This document shows, piece by piece, positions 1,070 through 35,660 of a stretch of 35,660 bases of DNA. Positions within the stretch are counted from its first letter, which is position 1; each line of letters opens with the position of its first letter. A model generated the notes under the pieces. It was not told where the DNA came from. It ran no database searches and saw only the letters and a list, made by a program, of their open reading frames with translations. The DNA lies in UHGV virus genome UHGV-0200663, one strand, 5' to 3'. This stretch comes from a virus. The translations under genes and the position numbers were made by a program.

Positions 1070-1672
1070 TTAATCACCGACAGTTAACGCTCTCACCTCG
1101 TCCAGTATGGACAGCCGGGAAAGCTGCTCCTTCATTTCACGCTGGCGCTGATAAATCCCGTCATTGCGATCGACCTGTGCCTGCGCCATTGCTGTCGCCA
1201 GTTCTTCCAGTTCCGGCATTGACAGTTTCACCTGTTGATTATCGGCGTCACCCCACGTCATCACGTCCCGCGCTGTGTCAGATTTCGCCGCCATTACCAC
1301 AGGATAAAGACGGGCCAGTGAGTCGGGGCCAGCGTTCCAGGTGCGACCGTTCCATTCGAACGTGAACGGCTGCGCTTCCTGTTCTGTGCGCCACGCCTCG
1401 ATTTCCATCTTTTTGGCATCTTTTGCCGCTGCGATAAGCTCCGGCGTGATGGTGAACGGGGCGATTTCGCCCCATTTGCCGCTTTGCAGTTCCTGCCAGA
1501 TGCGCTTACCGATTGTTGATGTATCATCAGGAGTGGCAGTGTAAGGGACTGGCTGCGGCTGGCCGTCAAACCAAACGTCACAGTCTACAGCGCTATTTTC
1601 TGTATAGCGGGGATTAATGATTTCTTTGATTTCCACGATGCATTCCTCACGCTGTGCGAATAAAAAGCCCAA
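1070..1672 (-). CDS. Tail fibre assembly chaperone (second cassette)
   Basis: Immediately downstream of the long fibre gene. ORF-track start at 1672 is TTG; a GTG at 1636 preceded by GAGGAA is a plausible true start. Family call is by position and size only. Confidence 0.5.
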   Translation of the reverse strand: MGFLFAQREECIVEIKEIINPRYTENSAVDCDVWFDGQPQPVPYTATPDDTSTIGKRIWQELQSGKWGEIAPFTITPELIAAAKDAKKMEIEAWRTEQEAQPFTFEWNGRTWNAGPDSLARLYPVVMAAKSDTARDVMTWGDADNQQVKLSMPELEELATAMAQAQVDRNDGIYQRQREMKEQLSRLSILDEVRALTVGD

Positions 1673-4600
1673 TCATCGCGTCGGAACCATAGGTGTTTGT
1701 TACCCCGGACAGGGCGCGATATGTACCCGGTAATGAATGACCTGCATTTCCCATAACGTAGAATTGCGGGCTTGATGAATACGTTCCGGCTGGATTGTAG
1801 GGCGCTGAAATTCCCACCGGCCCCAGCCGTGAGCCTGCGTAATATTGCCCTCTCACAAGCTTGATTTTTGTATCTCCGTCAGTCGTTCCCTGGTATGCAG
1901 CAATAATCAGTCCACCAACATCAGGGTCTCCCCACTCATTGCTGATGGTCCCCCCCATAACATTATAAATATCGGCTGTGGATATCTTTATTCGCTCCCA
2001 GCCAACAAGACGCCCGTAAATATATCGGTTAAACCAGATATCACCGTTTCCTGCATAAAACATTATGCATTTTGCAGCATCTGACGGGGGCTTTGTTTCG
2101 TACTGGTTCATCTGCCAGATAACATCAAGAATACCCGTAAAATAAACACCAGGTATGATTGTTCCCTGATTAGGGACGGTTACCGCATAACGTCCCGGAT
2201 AAGCGTTTGTTACCCACGTGGTCAGCTCCGATGTGTTTTTAAAGGTGAGCTGGTCTTCTTTTCCAAACGGATAACCAAATCCGAATGCACCAGGAAGAGC
2301 CAGTTTATCTTCCGCCCGGTCATAAATATCACTCTGGGCGCTGTACGTATTCTTTTGCAACTCAAGAACAGACAGCATGTCTTCCGCTGTAGTCTGAGCA
2401 AGCAGCAGCCGGGCTTTTTCTGACAGTGGAGACAGTGAAGCATTCCCGTCCTGATTAAAGCACAGAAGATTATCTGCCCGTTGCGTCAGTTCACTGATAG
2501 CCGTCAGCACATCGTTCAGCGGTTGTTTACCGGCCAGCGCGTTCATGATTGTCGTCGCAAAGTTCGGGTCATTACCCAGCGCCGCTGCCAGCTCGTTCAG
2601 CGTGTCCAGGGCTTCCGGTGACGAGTCAACCAGTGCAGCAAGCAGTTTGCGGACAAACGCCGCATTGGCTATTTCATTACCTGCTGCATCATCTGGTGGT
2701 GTTGGCGTGGACGGCGTTCCGGTCAGTGTCGGACTGTTCAGTGGCGCACGGGTTTCAATCAGTGCCCGGAGTGAAACCTCGTTGACTTTCAGGTTTTCCC
2801 AGCCAACCAGATAACCATCTCCGGTAGTCCAGTAGCGATTGTAATAAATGTGGCCGTTAATACCGTAAAAAATAATGATTTTAGCCACACATGCCGGATT
2901 GGGGTTGGTTTGAGGTTCCGGCCAGATAATTTCAACGGTACCCTTGAACAGCACGCCCTGTATTACCGCATTTGTATCTGCATAAACGGCATAGCGTCCG
3001 GGTTTTGCCGTTTTTACCCAGCGGAGAAAATCGGCCTCTGTTTTAAACTCGGTCCTGTCGCCGCTGGAAAATATTTTCCCGAATCCGAACATGCCAGGAA
3101 CCGCCAGACGGCCTTCGGTGCGGTCGTAAATACTCTCCTGCGCATCCTTTTGTGCTGCATTGCCCAGTTGTGGCGTCAGATTCGTCCAGGTGACCGGGGC
3201 GGAGATATTATCGCCACGAACGGTCATAAGAATCCGTCCGTCTTTTCCAAAGAACAGAACCAGCTTTGTTGCTGTCTGACTGGTTTTGTCGCCCCGGCCA
3301 TTATCCAGCCAGATAATTTCTGTTATTCCGGTTGTTTTTTCCGTTTGTGTGGAAAAGGTGTAATACCGTCCCGGGTGCAGGTTGTGAGCGGTTCTGGCTA
3401 CAGTCGCCATATCGCTGGCAATAATTGAACGTGCTCCGGCGTCCGTCATTCCGTAACCATACGCACCGGGAAGCGCAACACGGCCTTCCATGCTGTCGTA
3501 AAGGTCTATCTGAATATCCCTTACCGCTGCGCTTTTCAGCTCAAGCTCATTGCGCATGGCTTCCGCTGTGGCCTGTGCCAGCAGTGACCGGGCTTTTTCT
3601 GACAGCGGAGACAATGAAGCATTTCCGTCATGATTAAAGCACAGAAGATTATCTGCCCGTTCTTCCAGATTACTGATTGCGGTTAACACGTCACTGAGTG
3701 GTTGTTTACCCGCCAGCGCGTTCAAGATTGTTGTCGCAAACTCCGGGTCATTGCCCAGCGCCGCTGCCAGCTCGTTCAGTGTGTCCAGGGCTTCCGGTGA
3801 CGAGTCAACCAGCGCAGCAAGCAGTTTGCGAACAAATGCCGCGTTCGCCATCTCCAGCCCGGTCGCATCGTCCGGCGGGGTTGGTGTGGTGGGCGTGCCG
3901 ATGAATGCCGGGCTGTCCAGTGGCGCTTTTGTTTTCGTCTCGTCCATGACGGTTTTGACGGCTTTTGGCGTGGCGGCCAGTTCTTCGCTGTCGTTGTCTG
4001 TATCACTACAGAGTTGCACCAGGCCTTTTTGCGTCGTGCTGGCGTTGGTTCCCTTCAGGTCATCAACTATCCGTTGCGCCTCGTCCCTGTGCTGTTTCGC
4101 GCTCTGCTCGCTTTTTGCTGCCGCTTCGGCGCTGGCTTTTGCCTCACCGGTCAGCGTTGCGGCATCAGCAAGTTTATCGACCGCTTTCTGGACTATCTTA
4201 TCGGCATCTTTGACCGCCTGTTCTGCCCGGGCGGCATTCTGGTTGGTCTCAGAGGCCAGCTCTTCAGCTTTCTGCACATTACCCGCGATTTCTTCTGCAT
4301 CCTGCTGTATTTCCCCGGCGAGCGCTTCTGTATCCTGGCGGGCCTGTTCAGCAGCGGTGGCGTGCTCTCCTGCTTTTTCTGCGCTTTGCTGCGCCTGTTG
4401 CGCCAGCTCTTCGAATTTCTTCAGGGCTTCCGGGCGCAGGTCAATATCGGTTGCGCCCAGAAAATCATTCAGCGAACCGTCCGCTGAATCTTCATAAACG
4501 CGGATGACACCGATTTCTGAAAGGCGCTGTGTGCTTTGTGTCAGGCGAACGCTGTACACACCCGGCAGAACGGTGAAGTCATATTCCCCGTTCTGTGTGG

Positions 4601-4721
4601 TGACATGGCTGAAAACACTTTTCAGAATCCCTGCACGGTTGTGCAGGGAGGTCAGTGTAATGGTTGCGCCACCCAGCGGTTCTCCCGTGGGCGTTTTAAT
4701 CACACCTTTAAGCTGCGGCAT
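1647..4721 (-). CDS. Long tail fibre protein, lambda Stf / P2 H family, with internal repeats
   Basis: N-terminus (..GVYSVRLTQ..IRVYEDSADGSLNDFLGA..RPEALKKFE) resembles the lambdoid side-tail-fibre N-terminal domain. Two copies of ATPKAVK..KAPL.SP..GTP.TPTPPDD..ANAAFVRKLLAALVDSSPEALDTLNELAAALGNDP..ATTI.NALAGKQPL. Three xxEGRLAxPGxFGFG modules. ATG at 4721 with GGAG 8 nt upstream. Confidence 0.8.
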   Translation of the reverse strand: MPQLKGVIKTPTGEPLGGATITLTSLHNRAGILKSVFSHVTTQNGEYDFTVLPGVYSVRLTQSTQRLSEIGVIRVYEDSADGSLNDFLGATDIDLRPEALKKFEELAQQAQQSAEKAGEHATAAEQARQDTEALAGEIQQDAEEIAGNVQKAEELASETNQNAARAEQAVKDADKIVQKAVDKLADAATLTGEAKASAEAAAKSEQSAKQHRDEAQRIVDDLKGTNASTTQKGLVQLCSDTDNDSEELAATPKAVKTVMDETKTKAPLDSPAFIGTPTTPTPPDDATGLEMANAAFVRKLLAALVDSSPEALDTLNELAAALGNDPEFATTILNALAGKQPLSDVLTAISNLEERADNLLCFNHDGNASLSPLSEKARSLLAQATAEAMRNELELKSAAVRDIQIDLYDSMEGRVALPGAYGYGMTDAGARSIIASDMATVARTAHNLHPGRYYTFSTQTEKTTGITEIIWLDNGRGDKTSQTATKLVLFFGKDGRILMTVRGDNISAPVTWTNLTPQLGNAAQKDAQESIYDRTEGRLAVPGMFGFGKIFSSGDRTEFKTEADFLRWVKTAKPGRYAVYADTNAVIQGVLFKGTVEIIWPEPQTNPNPACVAKIIIFYGINGHIYYNRYWTTGDGYLVGWENLKVNEVSLRALIETRAPLNSPTLTGTPSTPTPPDDAAGNEIANAAFVRKLLAALVDSSPEALDTLNELAAALGNDPNFATTIMNALAGKQPLNDVLTAISELTQRADNLLCFNQDGNASLSPLSEKARLLLAQTTAEDMLSVLELQKNTYSAQSDIYDRAEDKLALPGAFGFGYPFGKEDQLTFKNTSELTTWVTNAYPGRYAVTVPNQGTIIPGVYFTGILDVIWQMNQYETKPPSDAAKCIMFYAGNGDIWFNRYIYGRLVGWERIKISTADIYNVMGGTISNEWGDPDVGGLIIAAYQGTTDGDTKIKLVRGQYYAGSRLGPVGISAPYNPAGTYSSSPQFYVMGNAGHSLPGTYRALSGVTNTYGSDAMIGLFIRTA

Positions 4722-5238
4722 CGGGACGCTCCGGCCAGTTGATGGAGTAAAAGGAGGCTTCGTCAGTAACGGTGCTTAAATCCAGAGCCTTTACCGCTTT
4801 GATATATGCCATCCACTGCGTAAGACGCGCTTTATCATCGTCGCTGATGGTGCCCAGCTCCAGCTCGGTTTTCCAGTCGGAGGTGATGTCCTTCGCTTCA
4901 TTCAGCAGGCTCTGGCGTTGTTTTTCTGCCAGTTGCGAATAATCAACAGGAACCGGCAGCACTTCGCCGTCTTTGTAATACCAGCAGGCTTCAATGCCAA
5001 AACCTTCCGGCAGTTCATCCACTTCCACAATGGTGAAGCCAGCCGGATAAAGACGGGACACGTCTTCCGCCATTGAATAAATCACGCCGGTTTCCGGGTG
5101 AATACACAATTTGTATTTCTTCGTGAATTTATCCAGTGATTCATAAAAATCCTGTCCGTCTTCACTGCGGAAATACTGAATGTTTTCACCATAAGGCATC
5201 TCTTCCGGGTAATAACGCGTGACGTTTCTGAGTTCCAT
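4708..5238 (-). CDS. Tail fibre assembly chaperone (U-like, first cassette)
   Basis: C-terminal ..FYSINWPERP motif typical of tail fibre assembly proteins. ATG at 5238 preceded by AAGGAG; the ORF-track start at 5274 would overlap the upstream gene. Confidence 0.65.
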   Translation of the reverse strand: MELRNVTRYYPEEMPYGENIQYFRSEDGQDFYESLDKFTKKYKLCIHPETGVIYSMAEDVSRLYPAGFTIVEVDELPEGFGIEACWYYKDGEVLPVPVDYSQLAEKQRQSLLNEAKDITSDWKTELELGTISDDDKARLTQWMAYIKAVKALDLSTVTDEASFYSINWPERPDAAA

Positions 5239-5252
5239 TATTTTCTCCTTAA

Positions 5253-6062
5253 TTAGCCGGATACCGTGCGCCATCCGCCATTGATATAAATCTGAGTTTG
5301 TTTGTAATACACGCCGCCGATGTTATCCGCAGAGCTCCTGCCAGTATCCTGAACGTTAATACCTGACAAAATACAACCTGAAGGCGCGCGAAATACCCAG
5401 GAAATTTCGTTACCACCGGGATTGTGAAACACTTCGCTGGTGTATCTGAAATCACGCACAGCGCCGGAATCGGTGCTGCTGATGGTGATATCGCTGGTGC
5501 CATCAAACAGCACATTGTTAATCCTGCGGGCCGTCTGAAGCCGGGTTGCCGTTCCGGCATTGCCACTGATGTTGCTGATGGTGATATCCGAAGACAGGGC
5601 CATGCCGTTGACCCTGCGGGTATTCGGTACAGCACTATTAGCTTTATTTACCGTGTCACGTAATGAAAGTGCGTCGATAATTTCACTGGCTGTGTTTTTC
5701 CCGAGAATACCGCGCACAAAAGCACTGAGCGGCGTTAATGCCATTGTGTCTTCGCCCGTAAAATACGGGAACGTATTATTCTGACCGGTTAATCCGGCAA
5801 TAGCTCCGGCTGAACCACTGTTCGTAATAAACAGTTTTTTCAGCGCCGTCATAATCTGGTCGGTGGTGTTTTTATCCGGTTTGATATTTGCCTGCCGGAG
5901 AATTTCCAGCAGTTCGGACTGAATAATATTAAACCAGTCCGGCCCCGGATAGGTGGGCGGAATACCATTCCCGCCTTCGGTAAAATAAAGCGTTGTTTTG
6001 CTTAATTCAGCCGCGACAGGTGGCATCACCGGCACACCCGTCGGATTATCCACATGAAACAT
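5253..6062 (-). CDS. Short tail fibre protein (Mu S / P2 H-like)
   Basis: N-terminus MFHVDNPTGV...; internal FPYFTG motif and C-terminal ..YINGGWRTV resemble P2 H / Mu S family fibres. ATG at 6062 with GGAG upstream. Confidence 0.65.
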   Translation of the reverse strand: MFHVDNPTGVPVMPPVAAELSKTTLYFTEGGNGIPPTYPGPDWFNIIQSELLEILRQANIKPDKNTTDQIMTALKKLFITNSGSAGAIAGLTGQNNTFPYFTGEDTMALTPLSAFVRGILGKNTASEIIDALSLRDTVNKANSAVPNTRRVNGMALSSDITISNISGNAGTATRLQTARRINNVLFDGTSDITISSTDSGAVRDFRYTSEVFHNPGGNEISWVFRAPSGCILSGINVQDTGRSSADNIGGVYYKQTQIYINGGWRTVSG

Positions 6063-34859: not shown

Positions 34860-35199
34860 CAACCAGGAATCTAGCTAAAACACGCACTTTCCCTCAAGTA
34901 ACCTAGAGGGTAAGATACTGAAACAACAAAAGCTGTTTTTGATATACGTCATTCGCCAGAAGCCTGGTTGTTATCGGGTTTGAAGCGTTTTTGAAGCTGC
35001 AATTGAAATAATGCGTGAAGCAATTGCTTTTCGTATGTTTAATGAAACAAAAGCCATTTCTAACAATCTTTCGCGTTTCAATGCTTAACGGCTAAAATTT
35101 GCTCTACAGGCTTGCAAGCCCCACCAAATCTAATCCCGTCAAATCCCGAATAATCCAATATCCTCCCGGTTTTTTTCGTACTTCTCGTGAATCAATACA
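34860..35199. repeat. Prophage left end (attL) with transposase-binding sites
   Basis: Minus strand from 35199: TGTATTGATTCACGAGAAGTACGAAAAAAACC...; further CGAAA-containing repeats such as GTTTCATTAAACATACGAAAAG and GAAACGCGAAAGATTG. Confidence 0.75.
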
Positions 35200-35435
35200 G
35201 TGGCATCGACGTTGGAACCAAATCGGAAGTGCACCAGGTGTTGTTTGATATGGCGAAAAAGGGCGTGGCGGTGATCGTGATCTCCTCCGATCTGCCTGAA
35301 GTGATGGCGGTGTCTGACCGGATCATCACCCTTAGTGAAGGCCGGTTAACTGGCGAGATCCACGGTGACGACGCTAACGAAGAACGGCTGATGACGATGA
35401 TGGCTATCAACCACAACGCCCTGAAAGCGGCATAA
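35200..35435 (+). pseudogene. 3' fragment of a host ABC-transporter ATP-binding protein gene interrupted by the prophage
   Basis: Translation ..VAVIVISSDLPEVMAVSDRIITLSEGRLTGE.. is a typical ABC ATPase C-terminal region; the ORF-track start MNQYSG lies inside phage-end DNA, so the gene is truncated at the junction. Confidence 0.5.
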
Positions 35436-35446
35436 CGGAGTTTCTC

Positions 35447-35660
35447 ATGACGCAGATGATTCCTAAAACGCAGGTCCCGGTAAAACGCGTCGGACGCATC
35501 GATCCCATTGCCTTCTTCGAGCGCTTCGGGGTACTGATTTTCATGATCCTGCTGCTGATCTTCTTTCAGTCGCAGAACAGTAATTTTTTCTCTGAACGCA
35601 ATATTTTCAACATCCTGACCGAAGTCTCCATCTACGGGATCATGGCCGTGGGGATGACCT
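35447..35660 (+). CDS. Host ABC-transporter permease (5' part; continues beyond window)
   Basis: ATG 12 nt after the ATPase stop; hydrophobic N-terminal segments (GVLIFMILLLIFF; IYGIMAVGMT). Confidence 0.5.
   Translation, partial: MTQMIPKTQVPVKRVGRIDPIAFFERFGVLIFMILLLIFFQSQNSNFFSERNIFNILTEVSIYGIMAVGMT

Follow-up and report, generated by a model that had tools for sequence, protein, structure and literature searches.

The long tail-fibre gene of a Mu-like prophage carries one ~400-bp segment twice, which raises the question of what the duplicated sequence encodes and whether its two copies recombine with consequences for the fibre. The window analyzed here (the whole 35,660-nt stretch of virus genome UHGV-0200663) is a complete Mu-like E. 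coli prophage, and the 1024-aa product of its long fibre gene is 100% identical to a protein (P0001, 'MAG TPA ... Bacteriophage sp.') from metagenome assemblies (4 contigs). At a fixed offset of 1179 nt, positions 2360-2760 and 3539-3939 are 81.0% identical over 401 nt; BLASTN gave a gap-free 394-nt alignment of the two repeat regions at 82.2% identity (E = 2.5e-114), MAFFT gave gap-free similarity between ~2375-2760 and ~3554-3939, and a repeat search returned a two-copy direct family at 2354-2653 and 3533-3832 (85% identity, spacing 1179). Identity at this offset reaches 87.5% in the sub-segment 2405-2660 and 94.5% over the 91 nt of the core at 2570-2660, and the exact runs shared by the copies are, longest first, 32, 31, 26, and 18 nt. 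Both repeats lie in ORF 1647-4721 on the minus strand and, 1179 nt being exactly 393 codons, share one reading frame; the segments that they encode (aa 264-395 and aa 657-788) show 83% amino-acid identity. No third collar copy was found by BLASTN over the window. These measurements bear out the direct orientation, the spacing of ~1.18 kb and the encoding of a duplicated fibre module given in a preliminary description of this DNA. Each copy of the module (C1 and C2) spans 132 aa. Self-alignment (81-83% over ~400 nt) lies above the level at which that description would have withdrawn the repeat (identity below 80% across fewer than 100 bp); its term "near-identical" was an overstatement, however, the segment at 2411-2760 being 82.6% identical to its partner over 350 nt.

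The fibre is organized as N-coiled coil-PF03406-C1-D1-D2-C2-D3-TIP, in which C denotes a copy of the conserved central collar module of Stf fibres and D one of three knob domains of ~120 aa, and the 261 aa of D1 and D2 separate the two collars (Table 1). PF08400 matched residues 4-130 with 93.4 bits (cut-off 26.6), the same residues that match PDB 7kjk and 9e7m, and PF03406 matched residues 228-267 with 57 bits, in a region that also matches Mu tail fibre S (PDB 5yvq and 8ju3). The collar matches a solved tail collar fibre structure in a PDB search, and its DNA matches lambda stf (69.5% over 225 nt; orf-401/orf-314), a P2-like phage and the 'constant part' of P7 S (P1/P7 S). Lytic phages, Av-05 among them, have fibre genes 80-86% identical in nucleotides to the D1 region. 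An AlphaFold2 model of C2-D3-TIP was poor (pLDDT 53.5) and a Foldseek search with it gave no match below E = 0.001, so we offer no structural reading of the collar or tip. The short fibre and its Caudo_TAP protein form the first fibre set of the prophage and the long fibre belongs to the second, whose DUF4376 chaperone gene adjoins the fibre gene in all related loci compared. A weaker second repeat, absent from the preliminary description, is a 52-nt motif whose three copies are 69-73% identical and mark the starts of the three diverged D domains.

Table 1. Features of the long tail-fibre locus, in window coordinates.
Feature	Position	Strand	Description
Long tail-fibre gene	1647..4721	-	1024 aa, lambda-Stf-like; Pfam PF08400 and PF03406, PHROG tail-fibre families
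Attachment domain at the N-terminus (PF08400, aa 1-95), then Ala-rich coiled coil (aa 96-227)	4041..4721	-	PDB 7kjk, 9e7m matches
PF03406 phage tail-fibre repeat, aa 228-263, directly upstream of C1	3933..4040	-	Pfam
Collar C1, aa 264-395, promoter-proximal copy	3537..3932	-	Repeat family, module BLAST; 81.6% nt identity to C2
D1 knob domain, aa 396-527	3141..3536	-	30% aa identity to D2 and D3
D2 knob domain, aa 528-656	2754..3140	-	
Collar C2, aa 657-788, distal copy	2358..2753	-	Repeat family, module BLAST
Most conserved core in C2 (partner 3749-3839 in C1)	2570..2660	-	Encodes AAFVRKLLAALVDSSPEALDTLNELAAALGND; contains 26- and 32-nt exact runs
D3 knob domain, aa 789-905	2007..2357	-	Module BLAST; 100% aa identity to D domain of 641-aa one-collar fibres
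Distal tip (TIP), aa 906-1024, presumed receptor-binding end	1650..2006	-	Module BLAST
52-nt D-domain start motif	2275..2326 (D3), 3079-3130 (D2), 3451-3502 (D1)	-	Encodes IYDRxEGRLAxPGxFGFG
DUF4376 tail-fibre chaperone gene for long fibre	1070..1672	-	Pfam PF14301, PHROG tail-fibre family
Short tail fibre (5253-6062) upstream of the long one, with its assembly protein of Caudo_TAP type (4708-5274)	4708..6062	-	PHROG, Pfam

The two-collar layout is kept in 120/120 of the best complete homologues (from E. coli, Salmonella, and E. marmotae), with a C1-C2 spacing of 391-393 aa in 103 of these 120, and is stably maintained in >100 protein clusters; an expanded, three-collar form was not found among the best-scoring homologues. 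A recent tandem-like duplication is ruled out by the 82% identity of the copies, by synonymous sites near saturation in codons 1-30 and by the presence of the layout in >100 clusters and three species, and the collar duplication is old. Global concerted evolution was likewise rejected: over 103 proteins C1 and C2 are 73.6% identical within a protein and 73.7% identical between proteins, so there is no general homogenization of the copies and conversion between them is occasional.

Synonymous divergence is nevertheless strongly uneven along the two copies of the window, with synonymous differences in 14% of same-amino-acid codons across codons 31-66 vs 67% across codons 1-30, and conversion tracts are found in close relatives. 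In L009, C1 equals C2 over 134 nt and over 92 nt, stretches in which the copies differ at 24 and 17 positions in the sibling prophage L001 and at 26 and 17 in the window. The first tract corresponds to C2 of L001 and the second to C1 of L001, so conversion ran both ways. A Mu-like relative 97% identical to the window, L010, has 2 differences in the first tract vs 26 in the window, here by conversion from C2 to C1 and inside the Mu-like lineage to which the window belongs. Protein sequences P0004, P0011, P0018, and P0020 show these patches too. The tracts of L009 and L010, each identical to the other copy in the same gene-family background, are most simply read as intragenic.

Shorter alleles occur in a sibling prophage, which at one chromosomal site carries fibres of 1033/1034, 766, and 641 aa. 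The 641-aa proteins (P0129-P0137) are shorter than the 1034-aa form by exactly 393 residues and have the layout N'-CC'-PF2-hybrid collar-D3-TIP, with D3 and TIP both 100% identical to those of the window. Their hybrid collars are always of C1 type on the left and C2 type on the right, with the switch at collar residues 28-64, 70-80, or 91-101, and at the DNA level two such genes (L012 and L013) align to a two-collar gene in two HSPs that overlap only across the collar. One- and two-collar alleles occupy a single chromosomal site within one and the same prophage, between flanks that are 96.5-99.5% identical, and fibre length therefore varies among related prophages. Over the last 680 nt of the fibre gene L013 is the same as the window (0 differences) and L012 the same as L001, so the one-collar alleles carry two different haplotypes. 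The 766-aa allele (L015) is joined inside the D-domain start motif at a 7-nt microhomology, TTCCTGG, which points to a RecA-independent event. The single collar of another fibre, L008, had been considered as a C1/C2/C1 mosaic, a reading rejected because other fibres have a C1 that matches it at 97% identity, which is ordinary polymorphism. Querying with D3-TIP alone recovered only 8 proteins, known members not being among them, and is hence uninformative on deletion alleles.

From these observations we consider it highly probable that C1 and C2 are paralogous collar copies that recombine in relatives of the prophage, by conversion, by deletion of one period and by exchange of the D3-TIP part. 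The duplication would normally be kept for the longer fibre that it builds (C1-D1-D2-C2-D3-TIP), and the retained in-register nucleotide homology would allow the copies to pair with each other and with the collars of other fibre genes. Three outcomes of such pairing are found in relatives, namely patchy conversion between C1 and C2 in either direction, a crossover that removes one period (393 codons comprising D1, D2, and one collar-equivalent) and leaves a hybrid collar in a 641-aa fibre with the same tip, and exchange of the distal D3-TIP cassette with a breakpoint inside C2. A two-step route is plausible, in which conversion would first create identical tracts of 92-134 nt, after which crossover deletion would become efficient. 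The repeat, the domain layout, the conversion tracts, the deletion-sized alleles with hybrid collars and the breakpoints are direct observations, and the direction of change (deletion rather than insertion), the enzymes involved and any effect on host range are inferences.

The lengths of exact identity bear on how often such events may happen. The minimal identical segment is 31-34 bp for RecA and 23-27 bp for Rad52-like phage recombinases such as Red-beta (De Paepe et al., 2014; PMC3945230), to be set against runs of 32, 31, and 26 nt in the window and of 134 and 92 nt in L009. The window runs are thus borderline for RecA and long enough for enzymes of the Red-beta type, and phage recombinases tolerate diverged sequence (PMC3945230). 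With exact runs of at most 32 nt the window allele would be in a low-recombination state, and it should recombine rarely, as that run reaches only the minimal pairing length of RecA. The preliminary description had proposed the repeats as substrates of RecA-dependent deletion or expansion, so that fibre length could vary within a population. Conversion tracts in close relatives and alleles one period shorter support recombination between the repeats, tempered by the short exact runs of the window itself, and the 7-nt junction of the 766-aa allele points away from RecA in that one deletion; deletion-sized 641-aa alleles exist in relatives, but expansion has no counterpart among the best-scoring homologues; and length does vary among related prophages (641 vs 1034 aa), the variation seen being between strains.

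A possible reading, to which we give clearly less weight, is that fibre lengths differ chiefly through exchange from one fibre gene to another, the one-collar form (C-D3-TIP) being older. Recombination of a phage or prophage with a second fibre gene at the collar they share would then create or re-sort two-collar fibres, and the repeat would serve for the splicing-in of cassettes and not be an element of instability. Relative to related Mu-like prophage fibres, cassette breakpoints of the window fall in C2, at C1/D1 and at D1/D2, and homology to fibres with other tips breaks inside C2, where identity to L007 drops from >87% to ~50% at aa ~720-736. Megablast matches to many E. coli fibres begin at window position 2375, 2410, or 2494, homology to the fibre of L001 begins at aa ~160, and two unrelated types of N-terminal part (38% aa identity) have been combined independently with the C1-to-TIP part. 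Minimal N-D-TIP fibres of 340-374 aa exist, the collar of L013, which is of C2 type from nt 12 onward, also fits an original one-collar gene, and up to 8 matching places per E. coli genome provide partners for exchange. A match named 'DH5alpha' (H29) belongs to a 1046-aa fibre adjoining uspF and is identical to the matches in E. coli W strains. The one-collar genes could be ancestors and not products, and the different switch points could also stem from allelic recombination among one-collar genes rather than from independent deletions. Against inter-gene exchange as the main route stand the tracts of L009 and L010, identical to the other copy in the same gene-family background, and the short alleles, which are off by exactly one intragenic period and whose flanks match two-collar alleles at the same site, with 0 differences in 680 nt. 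Exchange between genes and intragenic deletion are not mutually exclusive.

It is unlikely that the repeat is only a structural duplication under purifying selection, recombinationally inert in this allele, with the fibre length of this phage fixed. Such inertness would agree with the 81-83% identity and 32-nt longest run of the copies, with the steep fall of E. coli recombination with divergence (10,000-fold at 4% divergence in plasmids; PMC3945230), with the uniform layout of the 120 best homologues, with the lack of global concerted evolution and with the Mu-type lineage, in which no deletion allele (631 aa, with the window's Mu-type N-terminus) was found among the homologues searched. It accords poorly with the C2-to-C1 tract of L010 in that very lineage, with the very uneven synonymous divergence along the window's own copies and with the deletion-sized alleles that carry the exact D3-TIP sequence of the window.

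Two further explanations have next to no likelihood. Direct repeats within a phage fibre gene superficially recall the template/variable pair of a diversity-generating retroelement (DGR), a mutagenic origin ruled out by the mismatch spectrum: the 73 C1/C2 mismatches are spread over all four bases rather than being adenine-specific (C1 base A 22, G 22, C 18, T 11; transitions 40/73), both copies are coding parts of one ORF with neither at its 3' end, only the chaperone, com, and mom lie between the long fibre and the prophage end, and the other large ORFs scanned in the window encode functions of Mu transposition and morphogenesis. That the duplication arose in metagenomic assembly, as the origin of the identical P0001 might suggest, is scarcely credible and is ruled out by isolate genomes, the same layout being present in complete E. 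coli chromosomes (L001, L007, and L017) and in >100 isolate protein clusters, with P0001 itself on 4 contigs. An invertible segment of the Mu G, P1 C, or Min type was also rejected, since the repeats are direct and a repeat search found no inverted repeats in 1400-5000; no Gin/Cin-type invertase was seen among the genes between fibre and prophage end (small window ORFs were scanned in part), and the ORFs of the window that were scanned yielded no recombinase.

Lambda Stf, with its prophage homologues, is among the closest known systems. The gene has the features of this type, namely PF08400, PF03406 followed by a collar segment, and a chaperone gene immediately downstream, here of DUF4376 type. 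With lambda Stf and its prophage homologues it shares PF08400, the Ala-rich coiled coil, PF03406, a dedicated downstream chaperone, and the conserved central module APLxSPxxTGTPTxPT...ANxAFV...LDTLNELAAALGNDPxFATT...AGKQP. Lambda Stf has a single collar and is not known to have D domains, whereas the window fibre has two collars and three D knobs, is paired with a DUF4376 chaperone and not a Caudo_TAP Tfa, and belongs to a Mu-like myovirus as a second fibre set. In the T-even gp37/gp38 system, recombination at motifs reportedly swaps specificity and duplications of small domains reportedly expand host range. Short conserved fibre-gene motifs acting as in-register recombination sites, and a repeat number that alters the fibre, are common to both, but the unit here is a whole 132-aa collar with copies 261 aa of knobs apart, and the changes are loss of 393 codons and conversion. 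The tail-fibre genes of P1, P2, Mu, lambda, and p15B are said to be mosaic, and as in these fibres one conserved segment found in unrelated phages bounds the exchanged cassettes. In mosaic-fibre systems it is site-specific inversion (Gin, Cin, and Min) that varies the tip; in the window prophage, by contrast, no invertible segment was found at 1400-5000, and the two copies of the repeat have the same orientation. Recombination of stf/tfa between a phage and defective prophages is measurable at ~12% divergence over ~700 bp (De Paepe et al., 2014; PMC3945230), and the 32-, 31-, and 26-nt runs of the window lie in the same recombinase identity range, although exchange there is between genomes and here between two copies inside one gene.

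The repeat is genuine, and the locus is a rather ordinary example of how tail fibres evolve by modules. It implies no new mechanism, modular and repeat-mediated fibre evolution being already well established, and a literature search found no paper describing this specific fibre length polymorphism. A more speculative proposal, which we regard as rather doubtful, is that the paired collars act as a self-priming switch of fibre length or valency. If so, conversion would lengthen identical tracts (as in L009) and raise the crossover rate by orders of magnitude, and lysogen or virion populations would continuously shed fibres shorter by 393 codons and two knob domains, so that reach or receptor valency, and with it host range, would stay variable in the population with no dedicated enzyme. 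Tail-fibre genes set phage host range, and the natural points at which they break and rejoin are useful for understanding prophage diversity and for engineering chimeric fibres. The sibling prophage offers a natural series of 1034-, 766-, and 641-aa fibres with the same tip in one backbone, and its alleles show the collar and the D-domain start motif to be in-register junctions tolerant of fusion.

The preliminary description placed near-identical direct repeats of about 350 bp at 2411-2760 and 3590-3940, within the long fibre gene. This gene is ORF 1647-4721 on the minus strand and encodes a tail fibre of 1024 aa. The presence of direct repeats was confirmed by three methods: a repeat search of the window (two copies, 2354-2653 and 3533-3832, 85% identity, spacing 1179, exactly 393 codons of the ORF), MAFFT alignment (similarity without gaps over about 2375-2760 and 3554-3939) and BLASTN (82.2% over 394 nt, 0 gaps, E = 2.5e-114), which detected no third copy within the window. 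With the offset fixed at 1179, identity to the partner is 81.0% for 2360-2760, 82.6% for 2411-2760, 87.5% for 2405-2660 and 94.5% for 2570-2660, and the longest stretches of exact match measure 32, 31, 26 and 18 nt. On these identities, run lengths and BLASTN values, the repeat is real and well past chance expectation, yet falls short of near-identity.

By Pfam, the fibre has the prophage tail-fibre N-terminal domain PF08400 and the fibre repeat PF03406; it matches many PHROG tail-fibre families, and a 'Bacteriophage sp.' protein from metagenomes is 100% identical to it. The fibre belongs to the lambda-Stf-type family of prophage fibres, with each of the three tested features present: an N-terminal PF08400, PF03406 followed by the collar segment common to lambda stf, P2 and P7 S, and a fibre chaperone gene (DUF4376) directly downstream. 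In Stf-type fibres, the collar forms the conserved central segment; at the DNA level it matches lambda stf, the constant part of P7 S and a P2-like phage, and at the protein level a solved tail collar fibre. Module borders were drawn from self-comparison and module BLAST. As had been proposed, the repeats encode a duplicated module, the collars C1 and C2, 83% identical in protein. The knob domains D1, D2 and D3 form a threefold repeat more diverged than the collars (30-46% aa), with a conserved start motif, IYDRxEGRLAxPGxFGFG, that corresponds to a 52-nt repeat family at 2275, 3079 and 3451.

Modules of the 1024-aa long tail fibre
Module	Residues (aa)	Remark
N (N-terminal domain)	1-95	
Coiled coil	96-227	
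PF03406	228-263	
C1	264-395	one copy of the direct repeat
D1	396-527	
D2	528-656	
C2	657-788	other copy of the direct repeat
D3	789-905	
TIP (distal tip)	906-1024	

Several modules have relatives elsewhere. The collar core of about 89 nt (LDTLNELAAALGNDP motif, 2551-2639; C1 partner 3730-3818) recurs at 80-85% nt identity in the minor tail protein genes of about 300 phages of Mycobacterium and of many Gordonia phages, a fibre motif conserved across phyla at the nucleotide level. D1 (3238-3481) shows 80-86% nt identity to tail-fibre or hypothetical genes of the large lytic Escherichia phages Av-05, 24-2-1 and vB_EcoM_TH18, and D-domain homologues are present in jumbo phage Goslar; since D-like sequence occurs in temperate and virulent phages, knob domains move between the two. 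The second half of C2 (2358-2560) has at least four alternative versions across homologues, one resembling lambda Stf (LPYF...VLEYLG) and the window's being C1-like, whereas C1 is nearly invariant. Collar-less minimal fibres of Shigella sonnei and S. flexneri (P0123, P0124, P0126; 340-374 aa) have, besides a PF08400 N-domain and a short coiled coil, a single D domain and a tip, the D-tip part being 54% identical to the window's D3-TIP. The NCBI name 'shikimate transporter' on many homologues (P0008, P0011, P0014 and others), found also beneath a fibre match in the H47 record, looks like a propagated mis-annotation.

A complete Mu-like prophage occupies 1-35199 of the window, with Mu right-end sequence at position 1, the left-end motif TGTATTGATTCAC at 35199 (reverse strand) and 461 bp of flanking DNA (35200-35660). 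It encodes MuA, MuB, a repressor, Mu portal, sheath, baseplate J and gp48-like proteins. The fibre end reads short fibre and Caudo_TAP assembly protein, long fibre and DUF4376 chaperone, com and mom; Mu-like prophages on E. coli chromosomes have an identical order. Neither an invertible (G) segment nor gin was found in the window prophage; two fibre sets, short with Caudo_TAP and Stf-like long with DUF4376, stand in the segment's place, and a lambda-Stf-type N-terminal domain sits on the fibre of a Mu-type tail. In the otherwise similar Mu-like prophage of E. coli STEC1575 (L002 3005-4939), the long fibre gene is annotated as a pseudogene; it stops after D2 and is followed by an intact DUF4376 gene.

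The 120 best homologues (E. coli, Salmonella enterica and E. marmotae; 68-100% identity to the window protein) share the layout N-CC-C-D-D-C-D-TIP (CC, coiled coil) in every complete protein. Across 103 proteins, the spacing between C1 and C2 is 391-393 aa, identity is 96% among C1 orthologues and 82% among C2 orthologues, and C1-C2 identity is equal within a protein (73.6%) and between proteins (73.7%). The shared layout, spacing and equal identities indicate that the duplication is old, usually kept and not generally homogenised. The predicted expansion is not borne out: the best homologues, none of them above 1047 aa, include no three-collar fibre, a form that would have ranked top there.

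Patterns of identity nevertheless show local conversion between C1 and C2. In L009 (E. coli, encoding protein cluster P0011), the two collars do not differ at all over collar nt 28-161 and 235-326, stretches that hold 24 and 17 differences in the related fibre locus L001 and 26 and 17 in the window. Since the first tract matches the C2 of L001 exactly and the second its C1, conversion ran in both directions. In L010, a Mu-like prophage with a fibre 97% identical to that of the window, the first tract holds 2 differences vs the window's 26, and conversion patches are seen at the protein level in P0004, P0011, P0018 and P0020. Among same-amino-acid codons of the window's collars, 67% differ synonymously over codons 1-30 and 14% over codons 31-66, an unevenness that reflects a mosaic history.

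Searching with a synthetic C1xC2 deletion product brought up nine clusters of 641-aa fibres (P0129-P0137), which have the layout N'-CC'-PF2-collar-D3-TIP and match the window fibre at 100% identity in D3 and TIP. Their length is exactly 1034-393, the two-collar partners of 1033/1034 aa being L001 and L009. One prophage site, next to pphA, yebV and rsmF with flanks 96.5-99.5% identical, holds L001, L009, L013 (641 aa) and L015 (766 aa). Each single collar is a hybrid, its left part of C1 type and its right part of C2 type, with switch points differing by allele (residues 28-64, 70-80 or 91-101), and L012 and L013 DNA aligns to the two-collar gene as two HSPs whose overlap is confined to the collar. 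L013 shares its final 680 nt exactly with the window, as L012 does with L001, and these two haplotypes differ at 4 sites; one-collar alleles therefore carry at least two different two-collar haplotypes. Crossover deletion is the simplest reading of the 641-aa alleles. Together with the conversion tracts, these hybrid-collar alleles uphold, among related prophages, the earlier suggestion that repeat-mediated recombination varies fibre length. This support does not extend to the near-identity, RecA dependence, expansion or within-population variation of the preliminary description.

Other events have also shaped the gene. In the 766-aa allele (L015, L016; P0138-P0140), 801 nt are missing between the D2 and D3 start motifs, with a 7-nt microhomology, TTCCTGG, at the junction; this deletion is in register but essentially illegitimate. 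Breakpoints show exchange with other fibre genes: in comparisons with related Mu-like prophage fibres, DNA identity collapses inside C2 (aa ~720-736) against L007, at the C1/D1 border against L008 (639 aa) and at the D1/D2 border against L006 (777 aa). The main rival reading takes one-collar genes as the ancestral form and attributes the polymorphism to exchange between genomes; it is less likely than the best-supported reading and compatible with it. A diversity-generating retroelement, an invertible segment and an assembly artefact were rejected, as the repeat mismatches are not adenine-specific, the repeats are direct with no inverted repeats in 1400-5000, and the two-collar architecture also occurs in isolate genomes.

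In the best-supported reading, the repeats are structural paralogues that serve also as in-register recombination sites. RecA needs a minimal pairing length of 31-34 bp and Red-beta one of 23-27 bp, and recombination drops only ~100-fold at 12% divergence during lytic growth and 10,000-fold at 4% divergence on plasmids (PMC3945230). Recombination in the window allele should be rare because exact runs reach at most 32 nt and divergence is 18%, and should be much readier in L009-like alleles because of their 92-134-nt identical tracts. As such tracts should favour recombination over the window's short runs, a two-step route is suggested, in which conversion between C1 and C2 would be followed by a crossover.

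Motif-mediated recombination and duplication are known for T-even gp37/gp38, which the present fibre resembles in this respect, and for the P1, P2, Mu and lambda fibres, whose mosaics are like it in recombination behaviour. What is new is a natural allele series of this fibre with direct evidence of intragenic conversion between collars, for which a literature search found no published description. The finding is genuine and modest in import, the kind of behaviour being already known from other fibres.
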